Shown in pieces: positions 1,068-33,136 of a DNA stretch of 52,391 bases (positions are counted from its first letter, which is position 1; the number at the start of each line of letters is the position of its first letter). The translations under genes and the position numbers were made by a program. Source of the stretch: a virus. Lineage: Duplodnaviria; Caudoviricetes. The notes beneath the pieces are model-generated. The model did not search any database. It saw only the letters and a list, made by a program, of their open reading frames with translations, and had not been told where the DNA came from. The stretch lies in the IMG/VR virus record IMGVR_UViG_3300028559_000054, positions 1 to 52,391 of that record, one strand, 5' to 3'.

Positions 1068-1633
1068 TGGGTAAGGTAAATGTAAAATTTGATAGAATAC
1101 CTAGGAAAAGCAAGTCTTTTCAAAAGAAAAGTCACGACTTGGTAGTAAAAAAATATGAAGATAACAAAGATTTATTTTTTAAAGAAGTAGATGTTCATCC
1201 AATTACTCAAGAGATTGCTGGCGGACCAGACGCTAGTAATACATCTAATACTTTAGATGGCAAAGGAAATCTTTTTAGTTTTATTGGTTTTAATAAATCT
1301 GAATTTCCTATTGAAGATTTAATGAACGCTTTGGAAAAAAGTTTTTCTATAAAAAAACAAGAGAGAAAAGACAGAAATAGATATATAATTAATTTTGCTA
1401 CTTTGGATAAAATTAAAAATTTAACCAAGATGCCTTGGGAATCAGGCAATAGTTGGGTAGCCAGAATAGAAAAAGGAATATCTGGATTTAGCAATTATAT
1501 GTACAAAAAATTTGAAACTTCTAGATCTGGTTCTGCAATTCAATCTAAAAATAATGTAAGAGGTGGATCTTATAAGAAGACTAGTTATTTAACAGAAATA
1601 ATTAATCATTTTATATCTAACATGAAAAAATGA
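1067..1633 (+). CDS. putative neck/tail completion protein
   Basis: 188 aa basic ORF between the stopper-like and terminator-like genes; TAATG coupling. Confidence 0.4.
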   Translation: MGKVNVKFDRIPRKSKSFQKKSHDLVVKKYEDNKDLFFKEVDVHPITQEIAGGPDASNTSNTLDGKGNLFSFIGFNKSEFPIEDLMNALEKSFSIKKQERKDRNRYIINFATLDKIKNLTKMPWESGNSWVARIEKGISGFSNYMYKKFETSRSGSAIQSKNNVRGGSYKKTSYLTEIINHFISNMKK

Positions 1634-3973: not shown

Positions 3974-4243
3974 ATGAGACTTAAGAAAATAGTACATAAT
4001 TTTAATACAGAGGATACGATTAAAATGAATCTTTGCACCCAAAGCGCACAGAAAGTCTTAAAAGACAAATTTGGGGTTTTTAACTATAATTTTGATACTA
4101 TATTTAGCAATAAGTATATCGTCAATTATCTTAAATGGGATAAAGAAAAACAAAAAGAGTTCATTATTACAATCGGTGGTAAAATTAATTTTAAAAAAAC
4201 TAAATTCTTAATTGAAAACAAACTAGGAGAAATTACTAAATGA
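3974..4243 (+). CDS. hypothetical protein
   Basis: 89 aa ORF tightly packed in the operon. Confidence 0.55.
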   Translation: MRLKKIVHNFNTEDTIKMNLCTQSAQKVLKDKFGVFNYNFDTIFSNKYIVNYLKWDKEKQKEFIITIGGKINFKKTKFLIENKLGEITK

Positions 4244-5037
4244 AAGCTGATAAATTTTTATATGAATTTAAAATGAATAAACCTTCTGAGGTAGAAGAGA
4301 CAGAGATTTCTAAGAACGAAAATGGAGAAGAGGTCAAAACCACTAAAAAAATAAAAAAAGAAATTCCAGTACATTTTAGAATAATCAAACCTAATAGGAA
4401 ACTCTTTGATGAAGCAGAATTATTTTATGGGGTTAAACTTTCTGAGGGAATTAAAGCTGGCCTACTAACGAAGTCTTTATTAGCTAAAAGGTATCAAAAT
4501 GACGGCGGGGCAATGAGCGATGTAGAAAAGCAAAAATATTCTACGCTATATTTAGATCTTTATAGGGTTCAAAGTGAACTTCAAAGATTAGAGTTAAATT
4601 TAGATAACTTAGCCAAAGAAGAACAAGATAAAAAGATCGAACAACTTGTAACTGAAATGTCTCAAACAAAAAGAGAATTACAAGAAATTGAAAATTATCA
4701 TTCTACATTATTTGATCAAACCGCAGAAAATAGAGCCAGAAATCAAACTATCATGTGGTGGGTTCTTAATTTAAGTTATTTATCAGAAGATAATAATGAT
4801 TACAAAGCGTTTTTTAGTGATGGAGATTATGCTAAAAAATTAGATGTGTATGATGCATTCGAGGAAATGGATGAAGACTTCAACAAGAAATCTATGATAA
4901 AATTAGCATACTTTATAAGTTTATGGTACATGGGTAGAGTTTCTACATTTGAAGACTTTAAAAATATGGATTCTGCTCTAGAAAAGCCTCAAGAAGTTGT
5001 TCAGAGCCCAGATCAACCAGTCGTAAAGAGTGAATGA
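4240..5037 (+). CDS. putative tail assembly chaperone (coiled-coil), paralog 1
   Basis: between tube and TMP; coiled-coil; shares motifs with the next ORF. Confidence 0.5.
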   Translation: MKADKFLYEFKMNKPSEVEETEISKNENGEEVKTTKKIKKEIPVHFRIIKPNRKLFDEAELFYGVKLSEGIKAGLLTKSLLAKRYQNDGGAMSDVEKQKYSTLYLDLYRVQSELQRLELNLDNLAKEEQDKKIEQLVTEMSQTKRELQEIENYHSTLFDQTAENRARNQTIMWWVLNLSYLSEDNNDYKAFFSDGDYAKKLDVYDAFEEMDEDFNKKSMIKLAYFISLWYMGRVSTFEDFKNMDSALEKPQEVVQSPDQPVVKSE

Positions 5038-6025
5038 TCTTTATCAAGAATTAAATTTTACTAGAAAATTATATCGAGATATTCTCGATGGTTTTACGAT
5101 TTTTGCATTAAGCGACAAAAAAGTTAAGATCAAGCATCTAAGCGAAAAAGAGCTTTGCGAAACAAACGAAGTCTATTTAAATTCTTATAATAGCGCCAAA
5201 AAATCAGGCCTATTAACTGAAAAAGATAAAATAAAAATTTTTTGTGATGACAAAGTCTGGTCTGAAGAAAAAGAAAATGAACTTAAATCTTTAAACTCTG
5301 ACTTATCCTTAAAAAAAACTACATTAAGTAAACTATTTATTCAATCTCAAATTAAAAGTTTAAAGAGTGAAATTAAAGTAATAGAAGATAAATTAAAACA
5401 AATTACCGAAGAAAGAGAAGACCTTCTTGAACTAACAGTAGAAAATTTTGCTTTTAAGAAATCAAATCAATATGTAATCTATTTGTCTCTGCATAAGGAT
5501 GATGAATCAAGACTATTTAATTCTATAGAAGAATTTGAAGATTTGGACGAGGCTAAATTAATTGGTTTTATATATATTTATAAAGATTTTATTCAAATGT
5601 TTAATCTAGAAAACATTAAAAAATTAACTGTATCACCATTTTTTATGAATACATTTTTTCTTTGTGAGGACAACATATTTTCATATTATGGCCAACCAAT
5701 AGTTAATTTAAGTAAAAACAAAATAGACCTATTCTCTATAGCTAAAAATTATAAACACTATTTAATTAAATCAGAAGGAAATCCTCCAGATAATTATGAA
5801 TCTTTAGAAGAATTAGTAGCTTGGTATGAGAATAGGCCAAGCCTAAACTCTTTAAAAGACAAAAATAAAGATAAACTGGGTCAAAGCTATATAGGAGCCA
5901 CAAGAGAAGAGTTAATGAATATCGCCTCAAACTCAAAAGAAGAAGTCTTAGATTTATCCGAAGAAGCTAAAAAAGCTGGAGGAGACTTGTCCTTTGAGGA
6001 AATATTAAAAATCCACGGAATATAA
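5030..6025 (+). CDS. putative tail assembly chaperone (coiled-coil), paralog 2
   Basis: immediately upstream of the TMP; GTG start overlaps the previous gene. Confidence 0.5.
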   Translation: MNDLYQELNFTRKLYRDILDGFTIFALSDKKVKIKHLSEKELCETNEVYLNSYNSAKKSGLLTEKDKIKIFCDDKVWSEEKENELKSLNSDLSLKKTTLSKLFIQSQIKSLKSEIKVIEDKLKQITEEREDLLELTVENFAFKKSNQYVIYLSLHKDDESRLFNSIEEFEDLDEAKLIGFIYIYKDFIQMFNLENIKKLTVSPFFMNTFFLCEDNIFSYYGQPIVNLSKNKIDLFSIAKNYKHYLIKSEGNPPDNYESLEELVAWYENRPSLNSLKDKNKDKLGQSYIGATREELMNIASNSKEEVLDLSEEAKKAGGDLSFEEILKIHGI

Positions 6026-6068: not shown

Positions 6069-9000
6069 ATGGCACAAGGCGGAGATAATATCATTATTGA
6101 TGTACTGGGCAACACAAAGCCCTTAGAGAAGGATATCGCTCGGGTAGCTAATCAAGCATTAACATTAAATACCAAAGGGTTTTCTCAACCATTAGGTAAA
6201 ATAACTGGTCAATTAGGTGAATTTGAAAAATCATTAGCTGCTTCAAATGCTCGTGTTATTGCCTTCGGAGCTTCTGCAGGAGCAATTTTTGCTGTCCAAA
6301 AAGCATTTAGTGAGACGATAAAAAGCGTTATACAAGTAGAAAAAGCTTTAACAGATATCAATGTTATTTTAAATGTCAGTGAAAAAAGCTTAAGTCAATT
6401 TGGAAGTAAATTATTTGATATTGCAAAAAATACAGGTTTATCTTTTTCAGAAGTAGCAAAATCAGCCGCAGAATTTTCTAGGCAAGGTTTATCCTTAGAA
6501 GATACGCTAAAAAGAACAAGTGATGCCTTAATTTTGACAAGATTAAGTGGTTTAGATACTGTTAGTAGCGTGGAAGCTTTAACAGCGGCAATTAATTCTT
6601 TCAGCAGTTCAGCACTTAATTCTACAGAAATTGTAAATAAATTAGCTGCAGTTGACGCATCTTTTGCAGTAAGTTCTGCTGATCTTGCGGAATCAATTAA
6701 AAGAGTCGGTAGTTCTGCTTCTGATGTAGGAGTTTCATTTGATCAATTAATTGCATTAGTGACTTCAGCGCAACAAGTAACTTCTAGAGGAGGAAGTGTT
6801 ATTGGAAACAGTTTTAAAACTATTTTTACTAGATTGCAAAGACCTTCTACATTAGACGCTTTAGAGCAAATTGGAGTAGCTACAAAGGATCAAGAAGGAA
6901 ATATATTACCATTAATACAAATTTTAAATCAATTAGCGAAACAATATGATACATTAGGTTCAGTACAAAAAGCTCAGATTGCAGAAACGGTTGGTGGCGT
7001 ATTTCAAATTAACATTTTAAAAGCAACATTAGGTGATTTATCTAAAGAATATTCTATTTACTCAAGAGCATTGGGTATATCTGGTGGAGCAACAGACGAA
7101 GCCAATAGAAGAAATGAAGCATTAAATCAAACCTTATCTGCTACATTAAATAAAACTTTAGTTAATTTGCAAAGCACTTCAACTGAAATTGGAAATTTAG
7201 CTTTTGCCCCAGCATTAGAAAAAGCTCTTGGAGGATTAAATGCTATATTAGAAAATTTTGGTACAAAAGATTCAGAAAATATAGGTGCTAAAATTGGACA
7301 AGGATTATCTACTGGTTTAGGCAATTTTTTAAGTGGTCCAGGTTTATTGTTAGGAGCCGCTTCTTTAATAAAAATTTTTGAAAGATTAACGGTTTTTACA
7401 GCAGATGCTTTTAAACAAATTACTGGATTAAATACTCAAAGTGTTGAACAAAAAACTTTACAAACTCAAATTTTAAATCTAATTGGTAGCAATCCTCAAA
7501 TCATCGAACAAATAAATAAAGGAAATTTAAATACAACATCTCTCCATCAGCAAATATTAAGTTTGATTGAACAAGAAACTATAGCTATGCAAAAACAATT
7601 AGCTGTTGCAAGTTCATTAAGTCAAACTTTAATGGCTTCTGGAGTAAGAGTACCAGCTACTGGACCAATGAAAGGTGCAGCAGTAAAAACGAAAGCTTTT
7701 GGATTTATACCAAATTTAAGTAATAATCAAGAGGTAATGGGAGCAATATTAGGAGGATATGATCCTGGAGATGTTAGAAAGAAATCTATACCAGATTATG
7801 GCACAGTAACTTATAATAGTGCAGAAAAAATTAAAAAATTCCCAGGCATGAAACAACCAGCAATTATGCCCCCAGCATCTAGCTCTGCTGGTGAAATGTA
7901 TAAAAGAAATTTTGAAGCAGCACATGGATTTAATCCATATGCAAATAGTGGATTTGTTCCAAATTTTAAATCAAAAGTTGAGCAACAATATGGTTTTAGA
8001 AACTTATTAAAAGATGATTATATACAATTAGCTGGAGCAGAAGCTAAAATTGCAAAATTAGAAAGAAATAAAAGTCTTCAAAATGATCGTACTATTGTCG
8101 AGCAGAGAGGAGAAGTATTTATCAAAAAAGATAAAAAAAATATTATTACTTCTCAACTCAGAACAACAGAAAGAGATGCAGCAGAAAAAAGAGGTAAAAA
8201 AGAAGGTGGAATGACCAGAAGCAAAAGCGTATTGGTTTATCCAGATCTAGAAGGTGGAAAAGGTTTTCAAGGTGGAGGAAGAGCTAAAGATGGAACATTT
8301 TATAAATTTCCAATTTTTCCATTTCCTGGTGGTAATGAGCAAATACCAGATTTATTATATGATAATGTTTCAACATCTTTAGTCGGTGTAGCAAAAGATT
8401 ATATATCTGGAATTACAAGCCGACCAAATCTTGTAAAGAGCGATCTTTTCGAAAGTTATGTTAGATCAAATTTAAGTCGTAGTGCTGTAGAAGCTTCAAC
8501 TGGTCAAGTTTTTGAATCTGCGATTAAAGCTTCAATCAACAGAGTCAATACGAGTGAAATTGATAATATGGATTTAGATGGTCCTGAAATTAAAGCAATA
8601 GCTTCTAGATTTAAAGGTGCAAAAGGTTTAAGTAGTTTTCAAGATGGAGATTTTAAAAATAGTTTATCTAAAGGTAATTTAGATAGTTTTGCAGATAAAT
8701 TATTATATAAAGATAATAAAAGAAAAACTTCAAAATTTAATGGGTTTATTCCTAACTTCTCTCCAGTTAGTAAAGCTCTAAAAACAGAAAATAAAATGGG
8801 AGGAAAAGGAGTTTTAGATTTTGAACCAGGCCTTGGACTTTATGTTAGAGATCAAAAGACTCAACCAAATTTTAATGCAGTCAAAAAAGACCATCCAGAA
8901 GGAATAGCTTCTGCGGTTAGTAATTCTTTCGCTCTTCAAAAAGGAGCATCGGCTTTAGGATTTGTTCCAAATTTCTCTTCTAATCCATTCTCTGCAACTA

Positions 9001-12000
9001 CAGGCACTTATATGAATTCTCAAGAATCTATTGGTATGACCAATGTAATGAAAATATTAAGTCGAAGCATGCGAACCACAGATATCCAAATGAAAGACCT
9101 AACTACATCTGCAAGTAGCTCAAGTAAAGAAATAAAAAGTATTGGAGAGCCAGCAAAAAATATGAAAAGTGCTTTAGAAGGTTTTAGAGAAAAATCTGTA
9201 TATGCTTCTTTTGCAATATCATTAATTGGAGGTTTTGCCAATCAATTAGTCGGAGATAATAAAGCTTTGTCAAATAATATAAATGAATTAAGTCAAGGCA
9301 TGGGGACAGCATTAACTGCTGTTGGATTAATTCCTGGACCAATTGGGTTAGTCGCTGGCGGCGCCGCAGCTTTATATTCTGCTACAGCATTTTTAGCTAA
9401 GACTTTTAGAGATAACGGAGAACAAATAGGTAAAAATTTAGAAAAAATTAAAGAAGAAACGGCTAAATTTGCTTCTAGTACTCAAAAATATACAGACACA
9501 TTACAAAAATTAAACGAAGCATATTCTGATCCAAAATCTTCACTGGATACAATAGTTAAATTAAACAAAGAACTATATTCTTCAGCAAAAGATTTGCCAA
9601 ATGAATATAGAGCATATTTATTATCAATTACTGATGGTAAAAAATTACAAGAAGAAATAAATAGAATCCAAGCAGAAAAAAATAAAAAAGAAAGAGTCAC
9701 AGATTTTGCAAATAAAGCAAATGAATTACTTGGGGCTGGAACATTTGGGTATGGTGATATCTTTAAATCTGGAGGATTTAGCCCGGGGACAGCAGCTAAA
9801 GAATTTTTAAATTCATTAGAAGATGCAGATAAAGCTATTGAAAAAATAAATGTATCTTTATTAGATGTAAAGAAGCCAGAATTAATATCTTACTTAAAAG
9901 ATTTGGGCCTTAAAAATGAAGATTTGATGTCGATCTATAACAGAATGGGAGACCAAAATGTAAGTAAATTTGTCACAGCTTTATTCTTATCCGCGAACGA
10001 AGCCAAGAATACAGCTAAACAAATAGAAGCAATCTCTCCAGTTAGAGATGCGGAAATGAAAAAAATATTAGAAACAGAAAAAGCTGCATCTAGAGCAAGG
10101 GTAGCTTTAGATGGTTTGAATAATAATTTAGAAAATTTAATTGATAACGCTATAAAATCTGAAACATTCAGACAAAATTTTAAAGATCAAAATTCCGCAA
10201 ATACTAGAGACACTAAATTAAATCGAGCTGACAATTTAGTAGGACTTTATGAAAATTCTGCTTCGGGAGAGTCCTTAAATCAAGTTAGATCGCAAATATC
10301 TAAATTACAAAGAAATGAAGATTTATATAAAAACGTAAGAAATATACAAGCTTCATCAAAACAATCAATGTTTGAAGATGTAAGATCTTTTGCTAAAGAA
10401 TTAAATCAATCAAAAGAAGGCGATAATCAAGCATTAAGTAATGAACAATTAAAAAGTTTTAATGACAGATTATTAGAAATTTCTAGACAAAACTTAACGC
10501 CTAGCGAAACTCAAGGAGCTTTATCAAAAGAAATTGGTAATTTAGGAGGATCCTCAGATAAAACTTTACAAATACAGCAAAAATTAGCAGATTCAACAAG
10601 GTCTCAAAACCAACAAATTGGTACATTATCTGAAGAAGCCAAAAAAGCTAATATCATTGCTGCGGATAATTTAAATATTCAACAAAGAATACTCCAAATT
10701 AGAAGAGATACATCAACCGCAGGTGGTATTCAAGGATTTTTAGATCAAGGATCTTTTCAAAAAAGTAAAGAGTCATTTGACCAATATTCTAATATGTATA
10801 AATCTCCAGGCAAAGTATCCAGTGGGCGAGGTGCAGCTGGATTATTATCTGAAATAGTTCAATTTGCTGGAGGAAGTGTTAACGAAAAATTATTAGGAAG
10901 TCTTGGGCCATTAAAAGAACGAGCTATAAGCGGCAGATCACAAGACATAAAAAACCAAGCTAATTATTTTGCTAGAAAAAGTCCTGGATCTGGTAAGGTT
11001 TATAGAGACATTGCATCAAGGTCAAGAGAAATTGCTACAACTCAAATAGAGTCCTTGATTAAAGACCAAAATATTGGACAAAATGTAGATGAAATCACTA
11101 CTATATTGAAAGATATACAAAAAGAGCAAGCAACATTTACAACCGATTTAAATAATACTATAAACAGCGCAATTCAATCTATTGGGGATACTCTTGCCAG
11201 TAGCATAGACTCTTTGAAATCAATCATAGAAGGCGCTAGTGCTAAAAGCATTTTAGCTCAAGAACAAGTTGATGCGCAAAAAAATAAATCACAAGCTATA
11301 ATTTCTCAAGCTGGTGCAAAAAATGGTGTTAAAACGGCCAATGAACAAATAGGATTATTAGCGCCAAAAATACAAGAAAAAATTGATCCAATGATGGATT
11401 TTAAAAACAAAGGAATATTTGAAAGTCCAAGAGCTTTTGAACAACGCCGCGCAGGTTTACAAGACATATTAAAATCAATATCTGGCTCAAAACCAGTTTC
11501 TAATGAAAGTCTAAAAAGAGCAAATATTCAAGGCTCAGACCCAGTAAAACAATTAATAGATCAATATAATGAACAAGTTACGACCTTAGAAGTTTCTAAA
11601 TCAGCTATTGAGAACGCAACAAGTTCAATAAAAATTTTTGAATCTCAACTTCAATCTTTAAATGGGAAAATAACAGAAGTAAATAAAAATTTAGATAACA
11701 AAGCAAATACCAATGGATATAAACCTTTGCCTGCTAATGTCGCTGCTGCTCAAGCTAAACTTTTTAATAGTACTCCAGAGAAAATAGAGGCTGAAAGAAA
11801 AAGATATTACACACCTGCAATTGACCAAACCATGCAGCAAGACCCAGCTCAAAGACAAAAACTTTTAGAGTATTGGAAGAATTATAATCCACAAAATAAA
11901 AACAATAGTCTGAATAAGGTCGATGTTGGAGGAAAAGTGCAAATAGAAAAACCAGAAACACCTTTGGATCTAACAGTCAACGGCTCAATTTCTATAAATG

Positions 12001-25911: not shown

Positions 25912-26102
25912 TTAGCTTTTTTTAGATTTTGAGGCAAAAAAACATTAATTAATTTATTAAATTCTGGAACTTCTTGTCCTTTTAAATCTACCCTAGATAT
26001 AAATTTATAAAATGCATTAACGTCTTCTTTTGTTACTAGCACTTGAAACTTGTCCTCATTTACATTCAATATCGGTTGTTGATTATTATTTTCTTCACTC
26101 AT
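25908..26102 (-). CDS. hypothetical protein
   Basis: 64 aa; overlaps the upstream stop (ATGAGTGA); last gene of the minus-strand module. Confidence 0.65.
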   Translation of the reverse strand: MSEENNNQQPILNVNEDKFQVLVTKEDVNAFYKFISRVDLKGQEVPEFNKLINVFLPQNLKKAN

Positions 26103-26883: not shown

Positions 26884-26912
26884 ATCTTAGTCTATTTTAG
26901 ATATTTAGTCAA
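26884..26912 (-). promoter_or_regulatory. sigma70-type promoter
   Basis: TTGACT-17-TAAGAT, 6 nt before the ATG. Confidence 0.7.
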
Positions 26913-28050
26913 TAGAAAAAATATAGAAATTATCTATTTCTTTCCAGAATTCTATATTATCTACTACTTTATTTTTATTTTTATTTATCCAATCAAATTT
27001 AGAGGTAAATTGTCCTTCTGAAGATATTATGATTTTAGATGATTTATAATAAAGATCAGTTGGGAGGTCTTTTAATTTTATTAAATCTTTAGTTGTGTTT
27101 TTCTTTATGTGAATTAGTCCGTAATCCATATATCCTAATTTATATTTATTTAACTGCTCTTCTTCTAGGAAAGATATTAAAGTAAATTGAATACCATTAT
27201 TCTTCAAAAACTTAACAAATTCTGGGTTGTTATTATCATCAATAAAGTATATTACTTGGGCTATATTGGACCTAAATTGTGTTATAAGGTTTGGATCAAT
27301 CTCCTTATCTGTGAATATAATGCATTTTTTAAATTGCAAGTAAAGGGCTAAAACTTGTTCATTAAAGAAATAGTCCATTCTAATAATGGGGTTATCAATT
27401 GGAATTGATTTTGGATCTATTGGTTTATCTGGAATGATTTCTAGAGTCCTACTATTATAGTCTAGGCCAAAATATATTGTTTTTTGATTAATGCTATGCT
27501 TTATATTTAATAAATTTAATATTGATATAGCTATTTCTTCTGGTTTGATATTATTGATGTTCTTAGGATTTTCTCCTAGAGAATAAGAAGGTCTTAATGT
27601 ATTGTAGATTGGTTTAATTAAAGTTACATCTTTTTCATCTGACCAATAGGGTTTTACGTTATCTATGTTATTATTGCTATATAATGCTACAATTTTTTTA
27701 TTAAATCCAGACGCAATATGTACAGCAAAGCTATCTGCTCCAAAATGTAATATTGATTTTTTAATTAAATATGCCGCTTGGGATATGGTAGTTTGACCGT
27801 TAGTACAAATAGTACCATTGATTTGTTTATCATCTTTAGATCCAATTTGTACAATATCTATATCGTTTTGTTTTAAATATGGTAGTACGAGGTCTAAAAC
27901 TTCTTGCCAATAATCATAATTTTTTGCAGGTTTGCTGAATGGTTGAAATGTTATAAACTTTTCTGATGTAATTGGAAAATATGAATCATAAATATATGGT
28001 TTTCCAATTTTAACTCCACATGATGTAGCGTATCTTTCTAGTAAATGCAT
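26905..28050 (-). CDS. glycosyltransferase GT9-like C-terminal half plus extra domain
   Basis: KNYDYW...IVQIG...HFGADSFAVHIA...IVALY, the GT9 nucleotide-binding domain. Confidence 0.7.
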   Translation of the reverse strand: MHLLERYATSCGVKIGKPYIYDSYFPITSEKFITFQPFSKPAKNYDYWQEVLDLVLPYLKQNDIDIVQIGSKDDKQINGTICTNGQTTISQAAYLIKKSILHFGADSFAVHIASGFNKKIVALYSNNNIDNVKPYWSDEKDVTLIKPIYNTLRPSYSLGENPKNINNIKPEEIAISILNLLNIKHSINQKTIYFGLDYNSRTLEIIPDKPIDPKSIPIDNPIIRMDYFFNEQVLALYLQFKKCIIFTDKEIDPNLITQFRSNIAQVIYFIDDNNNPEFVKFLKNNGIQFTLISFLEEEQLNKYKLGYMDYGLIHIKKNTTKDLIKLKDLPTDLYYKSSKIIISSEGQFTSKFDWINKNKNKVVDNIEFWKEIDNFYIFSID

Positions 28051-28053
28051 AAA

Positions 28054-29979
28054 TTATCCTTTTAAATCAAATTGAATTTTCGTTTTACCGTTATGAATAT
28101 AATCTAATATTCTTTGGGTTCCAATAAATGGTAAAAATGCAATCTCGAAATATCCTTTGTGATCTCCCATTCCTTCTAGCCATAGTAATTCATCCATTTG
28201 AGGTATGTATTGAATAATTTTATGAATTGATGGATGACCTTTTAGTATATCAAAATATTCTTGTTTTACTGCCACATATAAATTATAGTCTGGATATTGT
28301 TTTTTGATATTATCAAAAAGCGCACTAGACATATATATGTCTCCTATAGATTCAGGAATAACATATAATATTCTTTTACCTTCGTCATCTTTGTCTAATA
28401 AATCACTAAAATCTATTTTTTTACTCTTCTCATTTTCTTGAGCAGCAATTTTTCTAAAATAATTTTCAATATCTTGGCGTTTTGCGCCTTTTGATATTTC
28501 TTGCATCCAGTATTTATGACCATCATCTTGATTATTTATTTGTTTCATTTTCAAAATATTATGATACATATATATAAGCCATTCTGAATCATCTTTTATG
28601 TCTGGTATTTGTGCAAAAGAATCTTTTTCTTCTCCGCCCATAGGAAAACTATAATCTGCAAAATCTGCTGAATCTATAAACTCTTCTATTTTTTTACCAA
28701 TATTTTCTACTGAAAAATTTTCTATTGTCCATTCTCTAGCTTTCTTACCCATATCTCTTCTTTTTTGCATTGGCATGTTGTATACTTTATTTAATTGTTT
28801 TGCTATAGAGTTAGGCTTCGTTGAGGCTTTAATAAATTCTGTGCCATGCTCTCTATACTCTGCCCATTCAAGTGGGAAACTATAAGCCTCGTCTTTACAC
28901 ATTTCTTCTCCACAACTATAATTTGTTACAAGAGTAATCAATTCTGTTAGTTTAGCTTCTTGTATAGGAATTTCCTGACCTCCACTTGTAAATGGGTGGC
29001 AATAAACGTCCATAAAATTATAAACTTCATTTAATTGTTTTTCTGAAACGCCAAGACCAACACTTGTTGTTGTTTGGCATTTTTCTCCACCGCAAAATCT
29101 ACAATTTACATCTTGCCCATGAAATGGTTTGATTTCGTAATTATGACAATTTTTACAAATATATGTAGTCAATATTTCTTTTAAATCTATATTGTATTCT
29201 TGAGCTAATTTATGTATGTTCCACCCCTCACTCCAATAAGTATGTAAAAGTAAAAATGTATTTTTAATTTGTGGATTTGATTTTTTCCATAGAGCATATC
29301 CTTCTAATAAATTTGGAACACTTTTTCTTAATTGATTTCTAAATACAAACCCAGTAATAAATGCATCTTGTGGAATATTAAATGCCGCTCTTAGCTTTGC
29401 TCTCTCTCCATTTTCTAGTCTAAAAAAACTAGAAGCCTCTAATGGCCCATGCATGGTTTTTACATGATCATGCCCAAGTCTATGCAATTCTTGAGTAGCA
29501 AAATCACTCCATATCCAATAATTTTTAATCTTAGGAGCTTTTTCTACAGCGCTTGGAAGGATAGGTAAAGAGTCTAGAGTAGTCCAAATTACAGAACTTA
29601 TTTTATCAAACCAATTTTTATCAATAGCAAAGTCTATACCCCAAATATCTTGAACAGCAATATAAACATCTGGTTTTTCTTGTTCTATAAATTTATCTAA
29701 ATTATACGCGCCATAACTTGCTAATCTAGCTAAATTTGGGTCTCGATTTAATTTCTCTATTTCTCTTGGATCGTCTGGTAGAGTTCCAATTGATTTCCAT
29801 GGTGTCTTTTTTAATTCTGGGTTTGAATATTGAATCCCACAGCAATAATTAACTATATCATATTTGCCAGTCTTATGTAAATAGGACAAAAGAGCTCTTG
29901 TAGCTCTGCCAAAACCTGTTTTGGCCAAACTATAATCCGACTGATAGAATAATTTCTTTTTCCTAGACACAATTACCAA
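28054..29979 (-). CDS. multidomain glycosyltransferase (GT4-like + Zn ribbon + DUF4214-like + GT9 N-domain)
   Basis: TGFG, RNQLRK and SGGQEIPIQEA GT-B motifs; CKNC/CRFC; C-terminal ILYVIPESIGD. Confidence 0.75.
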   Translation of the reverse strand: MVIVSRKKKLFYQSDYSLAKTGFGRATRALLSYLHKTGKYDIVNYCCGIQYSNPELKKTPWKSIGTLPDDPREIEKLNRDPNLARLASYGAYNLDKFIEQEKPDVYIAVQDIWGIDFAIDKNWFDKISSVIWTTLDSLPILPSAVEKAPKIKNYWIWSDFATQELHRLGHDHVKTMHGPLEASSFFRLENGERAKLRAAFNIPQDAFITGFVFRNQLRKSVPNLLEGYALWKKSNPQIKNTFLLLHTYWSEGWNIHKLAQEYNIDLKEILTTYICKNCHNYEIKPFHGQDVNCRFCGGEKCQTTTSVGLGVSEKQLNEVYNFMDVYCHPFTSGGQEIPIQEAKLTELITLVTNYSCGEEMCKDEAYSFPLEWAEYREHGTEFIKASTKPNSIAKQLNKVYNMPMQKRRDMGKKAREWTIENFSVENIGKKIEEFIDSADFADYSFPMGGEEKDSFAQIPDIKDDSEWLIYMYHNILKMKQINNQDDGHKYWMQEISKGAKRQDIENYFRKIAAQENEKSKKIDFSDLLDKDDEGKRILYVIPESIGDIYMSSALFDNIKKQYPDYNLYVAVKQEYFDILKGHPSIHKIIQYIPQMDELLWLEGMGDHKGYFEIAFLPFIGTQRILDYIHNGKTKIQFDLKG

Positions 29980-30522: not shown

Positions 30523-30551
30523 ATGATATTAGTTATTTATTATAATGTCAA
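30523..30551 (-). promoter_or_regulatory. sigma70-type promoter
   Basis: TTGACA-17-TATCAT, 7 nt before the ATG. Confidence 0.8.
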
Positions 30552-33136
30552 GTATTTTTATCTATCTTTTTTAAATCATTTAATTTCATGTATATCTCAT
30601 GGTCTTGAACGGCTATTAGGTCACCAAATATACAATCATCTCTTTTAGAACCCTTGACTATAACAATGTTTCCTTCTTCAAAATTTCTATTATTTAATAA
30701 TTTATTTGTCTCAATATTATCATTGAATATTAATACGCTAATTGTATTAGTTTCATCTGATACTTTTAGTCTGACATATCTTGTCTTTTTTGCATTTTTA
30801 GATATCCCAGAAAATACTTCTTCTATCTGACCGACTAAAACTACTTTGGAATTTACTGGCTCATCTAATACATCTGATACATATTTAAGATTCTCTCTCT
30901 TTTCAGCAAAGATGTCTTTAAGACTTTTATTATAAGTATACCCTAAGAGTTTCTTTTCGTAATACCAATTAGCAAAGCTTTCGCTTTTGTTGTTTTGTTC
31001 ATATATACTTAAATATGGCGTATACTTTTCTTTAATAGTTTCTAATCTATTGTCTTTAATTACTGCTTTATTTTTCTCATCTGTGAATTTATTAAGATGT
31101 TTAATGATTTTAATTAGATCATAGTCAAATTTATCTGCAAATGATATAGCGTATTTTTTCTCTTTAGAGGTCAGCATGTTCCATAGTTGGACTTCTAATA
31201 CTATTTTGCTTCTTGATTGATTAAAACCACTGAGGGCTCCAGCTTGAATTAATGCAGATAATGCTCCAATATTTAATCCAGCTTCTTCTGCGGCTTCAAA
31301 TATTTCAAATTTATTAGAATATTTATTTCTGAAACTATTTAGTTTTTCTATTGATTTATCGCTAATCCCTTTGATTGATAATAAGCCAAATCTAATATCC
31401 TTATCCTCGATTGAGAAATCCATTTCTGATTTAATAATGTGCGGAGGAAGAAGCTTGATACCAAAATTATGCATTTCTTTTTGGATCTTAGATATTTCTC
31501 CAATTGGATCTGGTTCATTCCTACTCATCTTTAATAATGATAAAAAGAATTGTTGAGGATAATTGAACTTAAGATAAATTGTAATTGCTGCTAATCCAGC
31601 ATAAGCGATAGAATGTGATTTATTAAAGGAGTAATTAGCGGAGTCTTCAAGAATCTTCCATAGAATTTCACTAACTTCTTTTGGAATTTTATTCTGTTTA
31701 CATTTTTGATCAATCTTTTGTTGCCAAGCTTTAATCTCTTCAGTTTTCTTTTTACCTACAATTCTTCTTAAGATTTCTGCTTCATCTAAAGTAAAGCCAA
31801 TCTTATTCGCCATTTTCATTAATTGCTCTTGATACAAAGCAACTCCGCCAGTTTCTTTTAAAATTTCATCAAAGAACGGATGAATACTTTCTGATTGTTG
31901 ATAATTTGTATGAGCTGCATATTTATCTACGAATTGAAGTGCTCCAGGTCTAGCTAAAGCAAGAACACCACTAAGTTCTTCTAGATTTTTTGGTTTAACT
32001 TTTTGACATACTCTAAAATTAGTTTCTGCTTCAATTTGAAATAAACCATGTGGTGATTTTAAATCTTGTAAATTTCTATAAATAGATTCATGATTTAAAT
32101 CAATATCTTCTATTTTTATCTTAATGCTCTTGCAAACATTATCTACTACAGAAACACTTCTTAACCCAAGGATGTCTAGCTTTATATTAAAAACACTTGC
32201 CCAATTCATATCAAAACTAGATACTACTTCTTTATCTGAAGAAAATTCTGTTGGACATATAGTTTCTAGATCATAATAAGAAAGTAATACACCAGAAGGA
32301 TGAACTCCTTTATTCTTAATTAAGTCTCTTAATTTAAGAGCGATTTGATATGCTTCTTTATTTTGATCACACCAATCTTTAAATTGCTCAACTTCTTGAT
32401 AAGCTTCTGAAATATCCTTAACTTGACCATAAGTCTTAGGAATCAAAGAAGAGATCATTGTCATTTCTTGCTCTGGTTTTTCGGCAACAATTTTACCACA
32501 TTCTTTAATAAGCAATTTTCCACTTAAACTATTAAAGGTTAATATTTTACTAGTTTTGCCTTTGAACTTGTTTTCTAAATATTGCAGGACTTTTTGACGA
32601 TTATAATAACAAATATCTAAATCTACGTCACACATCAAACTACCATCTAGATAAGTCACCCCATCAACAACCTGCTTTTTAGCGCGAATCTTGGATATAA
32701 ATCTTTCAAAATAGAGGTCATATTTGACTGGATCGATCCTAGTAACGCCTACCAAGTATAATATCAAAGACCCAGCCGCTGAACCTCTACCTAAACCTAT
32801 TGGAATATCACTAGTTTTACAAAAATCAATAACATCCCATACTAATAATATATAATCAATAAAACCCAATTCTTTTAAAGTATCTAATTCATGTTTTGCT
32901 CTATCAACATACTTCTTATAATTTTTATCAGATTTATTAATATTTAAAGTTTTAAACCCATTTAATGCTAAAGCTCTTAAAAAATCATAATTCGATGAAT
33001 CTTCGCTTATCCCTAAATGTCTTTTAGAGGCCAAATCAATTTCAAACTCTGGTAATCTAACTCCATGAATATCTAACTCTGCACCCTCAAATTTATCCGA
33101 AAAATCTTTTATATCAGAGTAATTATCAGTCTTCAT
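30548..33136 (-). CDS. dnaE: DNA polymerase III alpha core (family C) lacking the PHP domain
   Basis: GRGSAAGS, FERF, DVDLD, HPSGV, KLDILG, YQEQ, YSFNKSH motifs and C-terminal OB fold. Confidence 0.95.
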   Translation of the reverse strand: MKTDNYSDIKDFSDKFEGAELDIHGVRLPEFEIDLASKRHLGISEDSSNYDFLRALALNGFKTLNINKSDKNYKKYVDRAKHELDTLKELGFIDYILLVWDVIDFCKTSDIPIGLGRGSAAGSLILYLVGVTRIDPVKYDLYFERFISKIRAKKQVVDGVTYLDGSLMCDVDLDICYYNRQKVLQYLENKFKGKTSKILTFNSLSGKLLIKECGKIVAEKPEQEMTMISSLIPKTYGQVKDISEAYQEVEQFKDWCDQNKEAYQIALKLRDLIKNKGVHPSGVLLSYYDLETICPTEFSSDKEVVSSFDMNWASVFNIKLDILGLRSVSVVDNVCKSIKIKIEDIDLNHESIYRNLQDLKSPHGLFQIEAETNFRVCQKVKPKNLEELSGVLALARPGALQFVDKYAAHTNYQQSESIHPFFDEILKETGGVALYQEQLMKMANKIGFTLDEAEILRRIVGKKKTEEIKAWQQKIDQKCKQNKIPKEVSEILWKILEDSANYSFNKSHSIAYAGLAAITIYLKFNYPQQFFLSLLKMSRNEPDPIGEISKIQKEMHNFGIKLLPPHIIKSEMDFSIEDKDIRFGLLSIKGISDKSIEKLNSFRNKYSNKFEIFEAAEEAGLNIGALSALIQAGALSGFNQSRSKIVLEVQLWNMLTSKEKKYAISFADKFDYDLIKIIKHLNKFTDEKNKAVIKDNRLETIKEKYTPYLSIYEQNNKSESFANWYYEKKLLGYTYNKSLKDIFAEKRENLKYVSDVLDEPVNSKVVLVGQIEEVFSGISKNAKKTRYVRLKVSDETNTISVLIFNDNIETNKLLNNRNFEEGNIVIVKGSKRDDCIFGDLIAVQDHEIYMKLNDLKKIDKNT

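Follow-up and report, generated by a model that had tools for sequence, protein, structure and literature searches.

Why would a phage tape measure protein (TMP) carry the same six-residue peptide four times along its chain? This question is raised by the IMG/VR record IMGVR_UViG_3300028559_000054, a linear record of 52,391 bases from an uncultured virus, estimated to be 35% complete and analyzed over its whole length, which we refer to as the window. Its TMP gene (P0001; 6069..12185, plus strand) is a single open reading frame (ORF) of 2038 amino acids (aa) in which the motif GF[IV]PN[FL] is repeated. A preliminary description of this DNA proposed that the motif is a protease site or a module junction, turning the TMP into a polyprotein that delivers exchangeable effectors at injection. 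Our study found that the motif punctuates a cassette of three modules, A, B and C, which is set within a TP901-type TMP and has a hydrophobic region on either side. The motif is specific to the TMP, lies outside the domain folds, flanks heterogeneous domains, and marks the edges of homology blocks among relatives. The module-junction part of the earlier proposal was therefore borne out, given that the motifs occupy inter-domain linkers, that the domains they separate are not homologous, and that blocks of homology start and stop at them.

The four copies are found exactly at the positions first reported, all of them on the plus strand: GFIPNL at aa 545-550 (7701..7718), GFVPNF at aa 628-633 (7950..7967), GFIPNF at aa 892-897 (8742..8759), and GFVPNF at aa 964-969 (8958..8975). 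The segments of 83, 264 and 72 aa that had been described between them correspond to the start-to-start spacings of the copies. No other match to GF[IV]PN[FL] was found in the six frames of the whole window, and the composition of P0001 would lead one to expect 0.0002 matches per protein by chance, with at least one match in 4 of 20,000 shuffled sequences. The 18-nucleotide codings of the four copies differ from one another at one to six positions (copies 2 and 4 at one base), and the DNA flanking them is unrelated. The homologues keep the peptide, which agrees with the earlier statement that the motif is conserved at the protein level.

The assignment of P0001 to the TP901-type TMPs is based on two sets of matches. 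A PhageMin_Tail domain (PF10145) was identified at 6420..6998 (aa 118-310, plus strand) with a Pfam E-value of 3.4e-33 and a score of 115.6 bits (121.8 in a second annotation) against a gathering cut-off of 33.2, and 12 tape-measure families of PHROG match the protein, with matches that are confined to its N-terminal part and extend to aa 868 at most. Using 19-residue Kyte-Doolittle windows of 1.3 or more, we located one hydrophobic stretch upstream of the motifs (7314..7403, aa 416-445, plus strand) and others downstream (9198..9398, aa 1044-1062 and 1077-1110, plus strand, peak 1.72), which places the motif cassette between two hydrophobic regions. The preliminary description had situated the cassette just before the hydrophobic segments; this is only roughly correct, since one such region lies 100 aa before motif 1 and the other 75 aa after motif 4. 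Neither Pfam nor PHROG holds anything specific to aa 520-1010, and both the A-B-C cassette and the motif are absent from these two libraries. When P0001 was compared with 50,697 annotated phage records, all matches end by aa 420, among the matches listed.

The segments between the motifs had been expected to be globular, and structure prediction agrees with this expectation. Our AlphaFold2 model of aa 520-1010, a monomer built from 51 aligned sequences with a mean predicted local distance difference test (pLDDT) score of 76.1, gives three separate folded alpha/beta domains and leaves the motifs outside the folds. Module A (7719..7949, aa 551-627, plus strand) occupies model residues 33-100 as a helix, four strands and a helix, with block pLDDT values of 71-89; its residues E555, N583 and A598 are invariant. 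Module B (7968..8741, aa 634-891, plus strand) is an alpha/beta domain of ~260 aa at model residues 112-365, mostly above a pLDDT of 90, and when modeled alone, again as a monomer, it reached a pLDDT of 87.6 and a predicted template modeling score of 0.81. Across 54 sequences, G812, F815, E816, F848, K863 and K877 of this module are invariant and D861 is present in at least 90%. Module C (8760..8957, aa 898-963, plus strand) consists of a helix, a hairpin and two helices at model residues 381-441, with block pLDDT values of 75-84 and E907 and G945 as its invariant residues. Each of the four motifs is located in, or overlaps with, a stretch between the folded domains where pLDDT is below 50 (model residues 18-30 for copy 1, 111-115 for the stretch that copy 2 overlaps, 368-379 for copy 3, and 442-465 for copy 4), and in three of the four copies a helix begins at the motif or no more than three residues after it. 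The segments had also been called rich in proline and glycine, which holds for A (9.1% Pro, 10.4% Gly) and C (6.1% Pro, 10.6% Gly) but not for B.

The motif and its arrangement are not particular to P0001. A search with aa 520-1010 identified 521 proteins at E <= 1e-3 from 7,999 scored candidates, and when 1.84 billion cluster representatives were scanned exhaustively with HMMER, 449 matched at E <= 1e-3. The distant matches cover module A or C only, often as two to four stretches, and the proteins concerned are as long as 5198 aa. Among the matches listed, PF10145 is present in all but one of 120 relatives, whose lengths range from 1155 to 3540 aa; under a loose definition of the motif, 93 of these have four copies, nine have five, eight have three, five have two, four have six and one has seven, at spacings of ~83, ~220-345 and ~72 aa. 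In 138 further proteins the count of strict motifs runs from none (15 proteins) to 12 (one protein), and the distances between successive motifs show two peaks, 312 gaps being 70-89 aa long and 101 being 260-279 aa long. The confinement of the motif to the TMP was examined in 84 viral loci, a few contigs being counted twice: in all 84, every strict motif lies within one uninterrupted long TMP ORF, and in the sequence flanking the TMP, up to 10 kb per side, no other ORF of at least 60 aa contains a strict motif.

The logo, drawn from 898 strict instances, reads [AK][SA]xG[FYH][IV]PN[FY][AS]; among all strict matches in 258 proteins, GYIPNF occurs 38 times and GYIPNY 10 times. For 292 distinct A modules, the residues at the motif sites on either side (sites 1 and 2) were counted from alignments and not from the regular expression. 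At site 1, Gly and Pro are present in all 292 modules; at site 2, Gly is present in 288 and Pro in 290; and Ile or Val is found in 285 of 292 at each site. Asn is present in 283 of 292 modules at site 2 versus 228 of 292 at site 1, where it is replaced in the remaining 64 by E, Q, S, A, K, T or a gap. Divergent members of the family show forms such as GLIPQ, GLIPE, GHIPD, GLVPNF, GLIPSF, GMIPKF and similar. These counts, together with the divergent forms, indicate that the invariant core of the motif is G-hydrophobic-[IV]-P. The residue after Gly also appears to change in step at the two sites: of 21 modules with Leu there at site 1, 7 have Leu at site 2 too, versus 6 of 205 modules with Phe at site 1, the rows compared being related; a concerted change of this kind at both A-flanking sites could fit one shared partner or gene conversion.

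Comparison of the segments that lie between motifs shows where the modules change. From 342 TMPs, of which some ORFs read from loci may duplicate database proteins, we extracted 824 segments of 30-450 aa that are bounded by motifs, and these grouped into 111 clusters, the largest being A (235 segments), B (201), C (112) and a variant C' (96); 77 were singletons. According to hhalign (45%, E 2e-4), C and C' are probably related. One replacement is seen in P0076, which is 81% identical to P0001 up to aa 633, the end of motif 2, is unrelated thereafter, and becomes similar again from aa 890 onward, just two residues short of motif 3. A similar pattern is present in P0077, P0080 and P0098, and most of B is also lost in P0079 and P0098. 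When aa 480-1100 were compared with 341 other TMPs, 84 of 352 ends of high-scoring segment pairs fell exactly at aa 633 and 22 of 109 starts exactly at aa 892; altogether, 285 of 461 boundaries lie within six residues of a motif, compared with 11.6% of positions. Module A is followed by B in 162 of 235 cases and by a member of 19 other clusters in 41, whereas in 32 no segment comes after it; the commonest architectures, A-B-C' (70) and A-B-C (66), together account for 136 of the 342 TMPs. From these counts, the canonical cassette is the rule and swaps are the minority. The idea that the segments are exchangeable thus holds only for this minority.

What the motif does at these boundaries can be approached through its setting. 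TMPs are trimers in the lumen of the tail tube, as described in PMC10038345. We tentatively favor, at slightly less than an even chance, the reading that the motif is an uncleaved linker for docking and register, used in the trimeric TMP at every boundary of an insert that is not a coiled coil. The motif would stay uncut and would offer an exposed hydrophobic-proline docking patch, which one common partner would use alike at every domain boundary. This partner would most likely act in tail assembly or in the virion, the candidates being the other two TMP chains, the tube lumen and the tail assembly chaperone. Docking could hold the three chains in mutual register where the inserts are unable to form a coiled coil, and could allow each domain to be stored and then refolded independently after ejection. 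As a by-product, the near-identical 18-nucleotide codings would constitute micro-homology, by which recombination could swap, duplicate or delete domains. Several considerations weigh against this uncleaved linker. The docking role, the partner and the role in a trimer are what we infer, and our AlphaFold2 models are of monomers. A phage-encoded partner would be expected to allow the motif to drift, and the near-constancy of the motif in proteins whose N-termini are ~50% identical fits a role that is intrinsic or directed at the host no less well. Likewise, the counts of segment-pair boundaries and of clusters come from related sequences, which are not independent of one another.

Three other explanations were weighed against the uncleaved linker. 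One of them holds that the motif and the inter-motif segments form a single structural repeat, in which the motif is an integral strand and nothing is modular; it draws on the hhalign comparison of A with C, which gave 97.7% (E 2e-12) when the motifs were included. This value is explained by the motifs alone, since the motif-free cores of A and C gave 0.2% (the cores of A and B also gave 0.2%), and the loss of similarity indicates that the motif is a separate element flanking unrelated domains. Furthermore, the order of secondary structures differs among A, B and C, the motif has pLDDT values below 50 versus 71-96 for the domains, and the same slot is filled by unrelated segments in relatives. 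We therefore regard a single repeat as extremely improbable. The treatment of A and C as one repeat was ruled out by the 0.2% obtained with their motif-free cores, and the outcome against which the preliminary description had set its own idea, namely segments that form one structural repeat domain, was looked for and rejected by the core hhalign comparisons and AlphaFold2. A second explanation is that the motif is a cleavage site, cut by a phage or host protease or through self-cleavage at Asn, so that a polyprotein TMP would release A, B and C during tail maturation or after ejection. Every inserted domain is flanked on each side by this one short motif, in linkers that are exposed and disordered, and this is indeed the layout of a polyprotein. 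However, the TMP is one ORF in all 84 loci, with no natural split at the motif. Four of five looked-up matches shorter than 600 aa come from contigs of 1.5-4.0 kb and are, given these contig sizes, probably fragments; the other, P0240 (268 aa), is on a 10 kb contig. Sites that cleave themselves by Asn cyclization, as in inteins and in nodavirus and tetravirus coat proteins, have an invariant Asn at the scissile bond. In 64 of 292 A modules Asn is replaced at site 1, where Gly and Pro remain constant. Asn is thus dispensable at that site, which weighs against Asn-driven self-cleavage there; this candidate was dropped, as Asn is kept at site 1 in only 228 of 292. Cleavage of TMPs has precedents, since PMC10038345 describes T5 pb2 as cut after R1127, between a hydrophobic stretch and a peptidase domain, and the lambda TMP as also processed; the motif, however, does not resemble the T5 site, where the cut comes after Arg. 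Among 18 tail-region ORFs, none was recognized as a protease gene, in a window that represents ~35% of the genome and with a host protease being possible. Modules A, B and C have no match to a known enzyme family or fold, and the enzyme domains that can be recognized in relatives are not flanked by the motif: PF01832 (aa 2102-2235 of P0036) and PF03734 (aa 2101-2259 of P0056), both cell-wall enzyme domains, lie more than 1100 aa past the last motif. Judging from the sequences, nothing beyond the layout seems to speak for cleavage, for a polyprotein or for the delivery of effectors, and we consider this explanation unlikely.

The third explanation is directed at the host: the motif would mimic the peptide signature of prolyl-isomerase-type periplasmic chaperones (SurA P1, FkpA-like), and a host chaperone would grip the domain boundaries while the TMP, unfolded, emerges from the tail, ratchet it out and aid the refolding of its domains. 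PMC11401910 reports that the phage-display peptide WEYIPNV binds the SurA P1 domain with a dissociation constant of 1-14 uM and that the preference is for Ar-X-Ar-X-Pro (Ar, aromatic), and the GYIPN variants of the motif share five residues with this peptide. With the SurA P1 signature (PDB 2PV1 as cited in PMC11401910) the motif has the aromatic-[IV]-Pro-Asn core in common, identical in the GYIPN variants, and the context is alike, an unfolded chain in a diderm periplasm, E. coli SurA being a stand-in for the chaperone of the host. The second part of the preference is present in the motif: F, Y or H stands two residues before Pro in all 898 regular-expression instances and in 261 of 292 aligned sites, with I or V just before Pro in 0.99 of the 898 instances. 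The first aromatic residue, which would stand four positions before Pro, is on the other hand absent, and this position, just before Gly, varies among residues (S 0.14, G 0.13, K 0.11, Q 0.10, L 0.09). Further points are in favor of this explanation. Genome injection by HK97 needs FkpA together with PtsG, and the title of Cumby et al. 2015 names the TMP (as cited in PMC5099701 and PMC7229145). The phage carries a heptosyltransferase-like gene, and the 12 relatives found in a genome collection all belong to metagenome-assembled genomes labeled as diderm (Proteobacteria, Flavobacteriales/Flavobacterium, Halobacteriovorax, Neomarinimicrobiota, and Cellvibrionales), although the binning of phage contigs into such genomes is unreliable. 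It is important to consider that, with many motifs known, a likeness of four to five residues to a single selected peptide may be due to chance. A complex prediction of E. coli SurA 165-290 with TMP aa 874-915, which contains motif 3, scored 0.02 versus a mark of 0.32; it was run without controls and speaks neither for nor against binding. Taken with these points, the grip of a prolyl-isomerase-type chaperone is quite unlikely, and it is decidedly improbable that the motif mimics outer-membrane-protein chaperone signals so that an ATP-free host folding machinery would ratchet the TMP out and refold its domains in the periplasm. Two other known signals were compared with the motif and dropped: the prepilin-peptidase site G|F-T-L-I-E, which misfits at positions +2 and +5, and the outer-membrane-protein beta-signal GxxΦxΦ, which needs a hydrophobic residue where the motif has Pro.

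Known systems resemble this TMP in part. With the TP901-1-type TMPs defined by PF10145, P0001 has in common the N-terminal PF10145 domain, the N-terminal PHROG matches, a great length and hydrophobic stretches; it differs from them in the A-B-C cassette and the motif, with aa 520-1010 lacking a specific profile match. T5 pb2 and lambda gpH, as treated in PMC10038345, are likewise TMPs with globular non-coiled-coil parts beside hydrophobic stretches. In these, one cut is made near the C-terminus, after Arg, whereas here up to 12 motifs flank domains that belong to no known enzyme family. The relatives that carry glucosaminidase and YkuD domains have these without motif flanks. The modular theory of phage evolution describes conserved linkers at the module boundaries of mosaic phage genes. 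The motif is similar to such linkers in being a short conserved sequence exactly where unrelated segments swap, and different in that the boundary lies inside one protein and is kept at the protein level across relatives that are 30-50% identical, so that selection must act on the peptide and not on DNA homology alone. In the literature searched, supplementary files being outside the search, the strings GFIPNF, GFVPNF, FIPNF and FVPNF were found in four papers, of which none deals with phages. A search for TMP polyproteins or processing, with the same limit, found only work on RNA viruses and a review of frameshifting.

The identity of the modules was also investigated by structure and sequence comparison. 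Foldseek found nothing at E <= 0.001 for the model of aa 520-1010 in PDB and BFVD, or for the model of B alone in PDB. VIA-align against 48,161 chains gave best Z scores of 3.5 for the former and 3.8 for the latter, with no clear fold relative, and in the ESM Atlas the best scores were 0.76 for A and 0.83 for B, both below 0.9, a level under which a match is a lead at most. The sequences of solved structures gave no match to the whole TMP at E <= 1, and only ORC3 (E 0.5) to the profile of B. Among the structural comparisons of B, those with four PD-(D/E)xK enzymes, which are restriction or cap-snatching endonucleases, namely 1knv (Z 3.0), 1cfr (Z 3.0), 5ize (Z 2.9) and 3bm3 (Z 2.8), are weak and tied with unrelated rows. 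Module B may be nuclease-like, a lead only, in that its pattern E816 ... D861-x-K863 recalls PD-(D/E)xK. Module A also occurs at other positions in giant TMPs. In P0139, P0141, P0143, P0153 and P0164, a second, diverged module A was observed far downstream in the same TMP (e.g. aa 1337-1420, 2574-2654), flanked by degenerate G-N-[IV]-P motifs and followed by a conserved AVGGPS[IM][AG]N[IVL]DP stretch.

The remainder of the window, which has a G+C content of ~26-36% and in which a tRNA scan found no tRNA genes, gives the context of the TMP gene. Two overlapping ORFs lie upstream of it and six ORFs of 545-1068 aa downstream, an order that would suit a tail module in which a chaperone pair comes before the TMP gene and distal tail or baseplate genes come after it. 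The upstream pair, 4240-5037 (265 aa) and 5030-6025 (331 aa), both on the plus strand and overlapping by 8 nt, lies directly 5' of the TMP gene. The position just upstream of a TMP gene is the usual one for a pair of tail assembly chaperones, often joined by programmed frameshifting. For these two ORFs no PHROG match was found, and their sole Pfam row was YgaB (E 0.0075), below the cut-off. In PHROG and Pfam scans of the 18 tail-region ORFs, no protease, tube, chaperone or baseplate family was recognized, and the 15 other large presumed tail ORFs of 101-25911 (plus strand) had no PHROG match and no Pfam match at the cut-off. The virion module of this lineage is, judged by these scans, essentially unannotatable with profile libraries. 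At about nt 26,000 the coding strand flips from plus to minus, and the sign of the GC skew flips there as well. On the minus strand beyond this point, we identified a GT9 heptosyltransferase-like gene (26905-28050; PF01075, E 4.4e-7), a GT1 gene (28054-29979; PF00534, E 5.9e-8, phrog_2170) and a DNA polymerase gene (30548-33136; phrog_405, E 2.3e-155). The two glycosyltransferase-like genes suggest, from their family matches, modification of the lipopolysaccharide of a diderm host.

How TMPs carry globular parts within a narrow tail tube, and what these parts do after ejection, is poorly understood. The family described here presents a grammar that can be read from sequence, motif-domain-motif-domain-motif, in hundreds of uncultured aquatic phages. 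Its three common domain types have no Pfam match and, in our fold searches, no clear fold relative, and their slots are also occupied by more than 100 rarer types of segment. The motif is a simple marker for annotating these TMPs and the boundaries of their domains, and it offers precise points for experiments. Were a host chaperone to recognize the motif, this would give a general, sequence-readable explanation of the dependence of some phages on periplasmic chaperones during DNA entry; and if the motif proved to be a cleavage site or a docking site for a host chaperone, it would represent a new principle of phage genome delivery.

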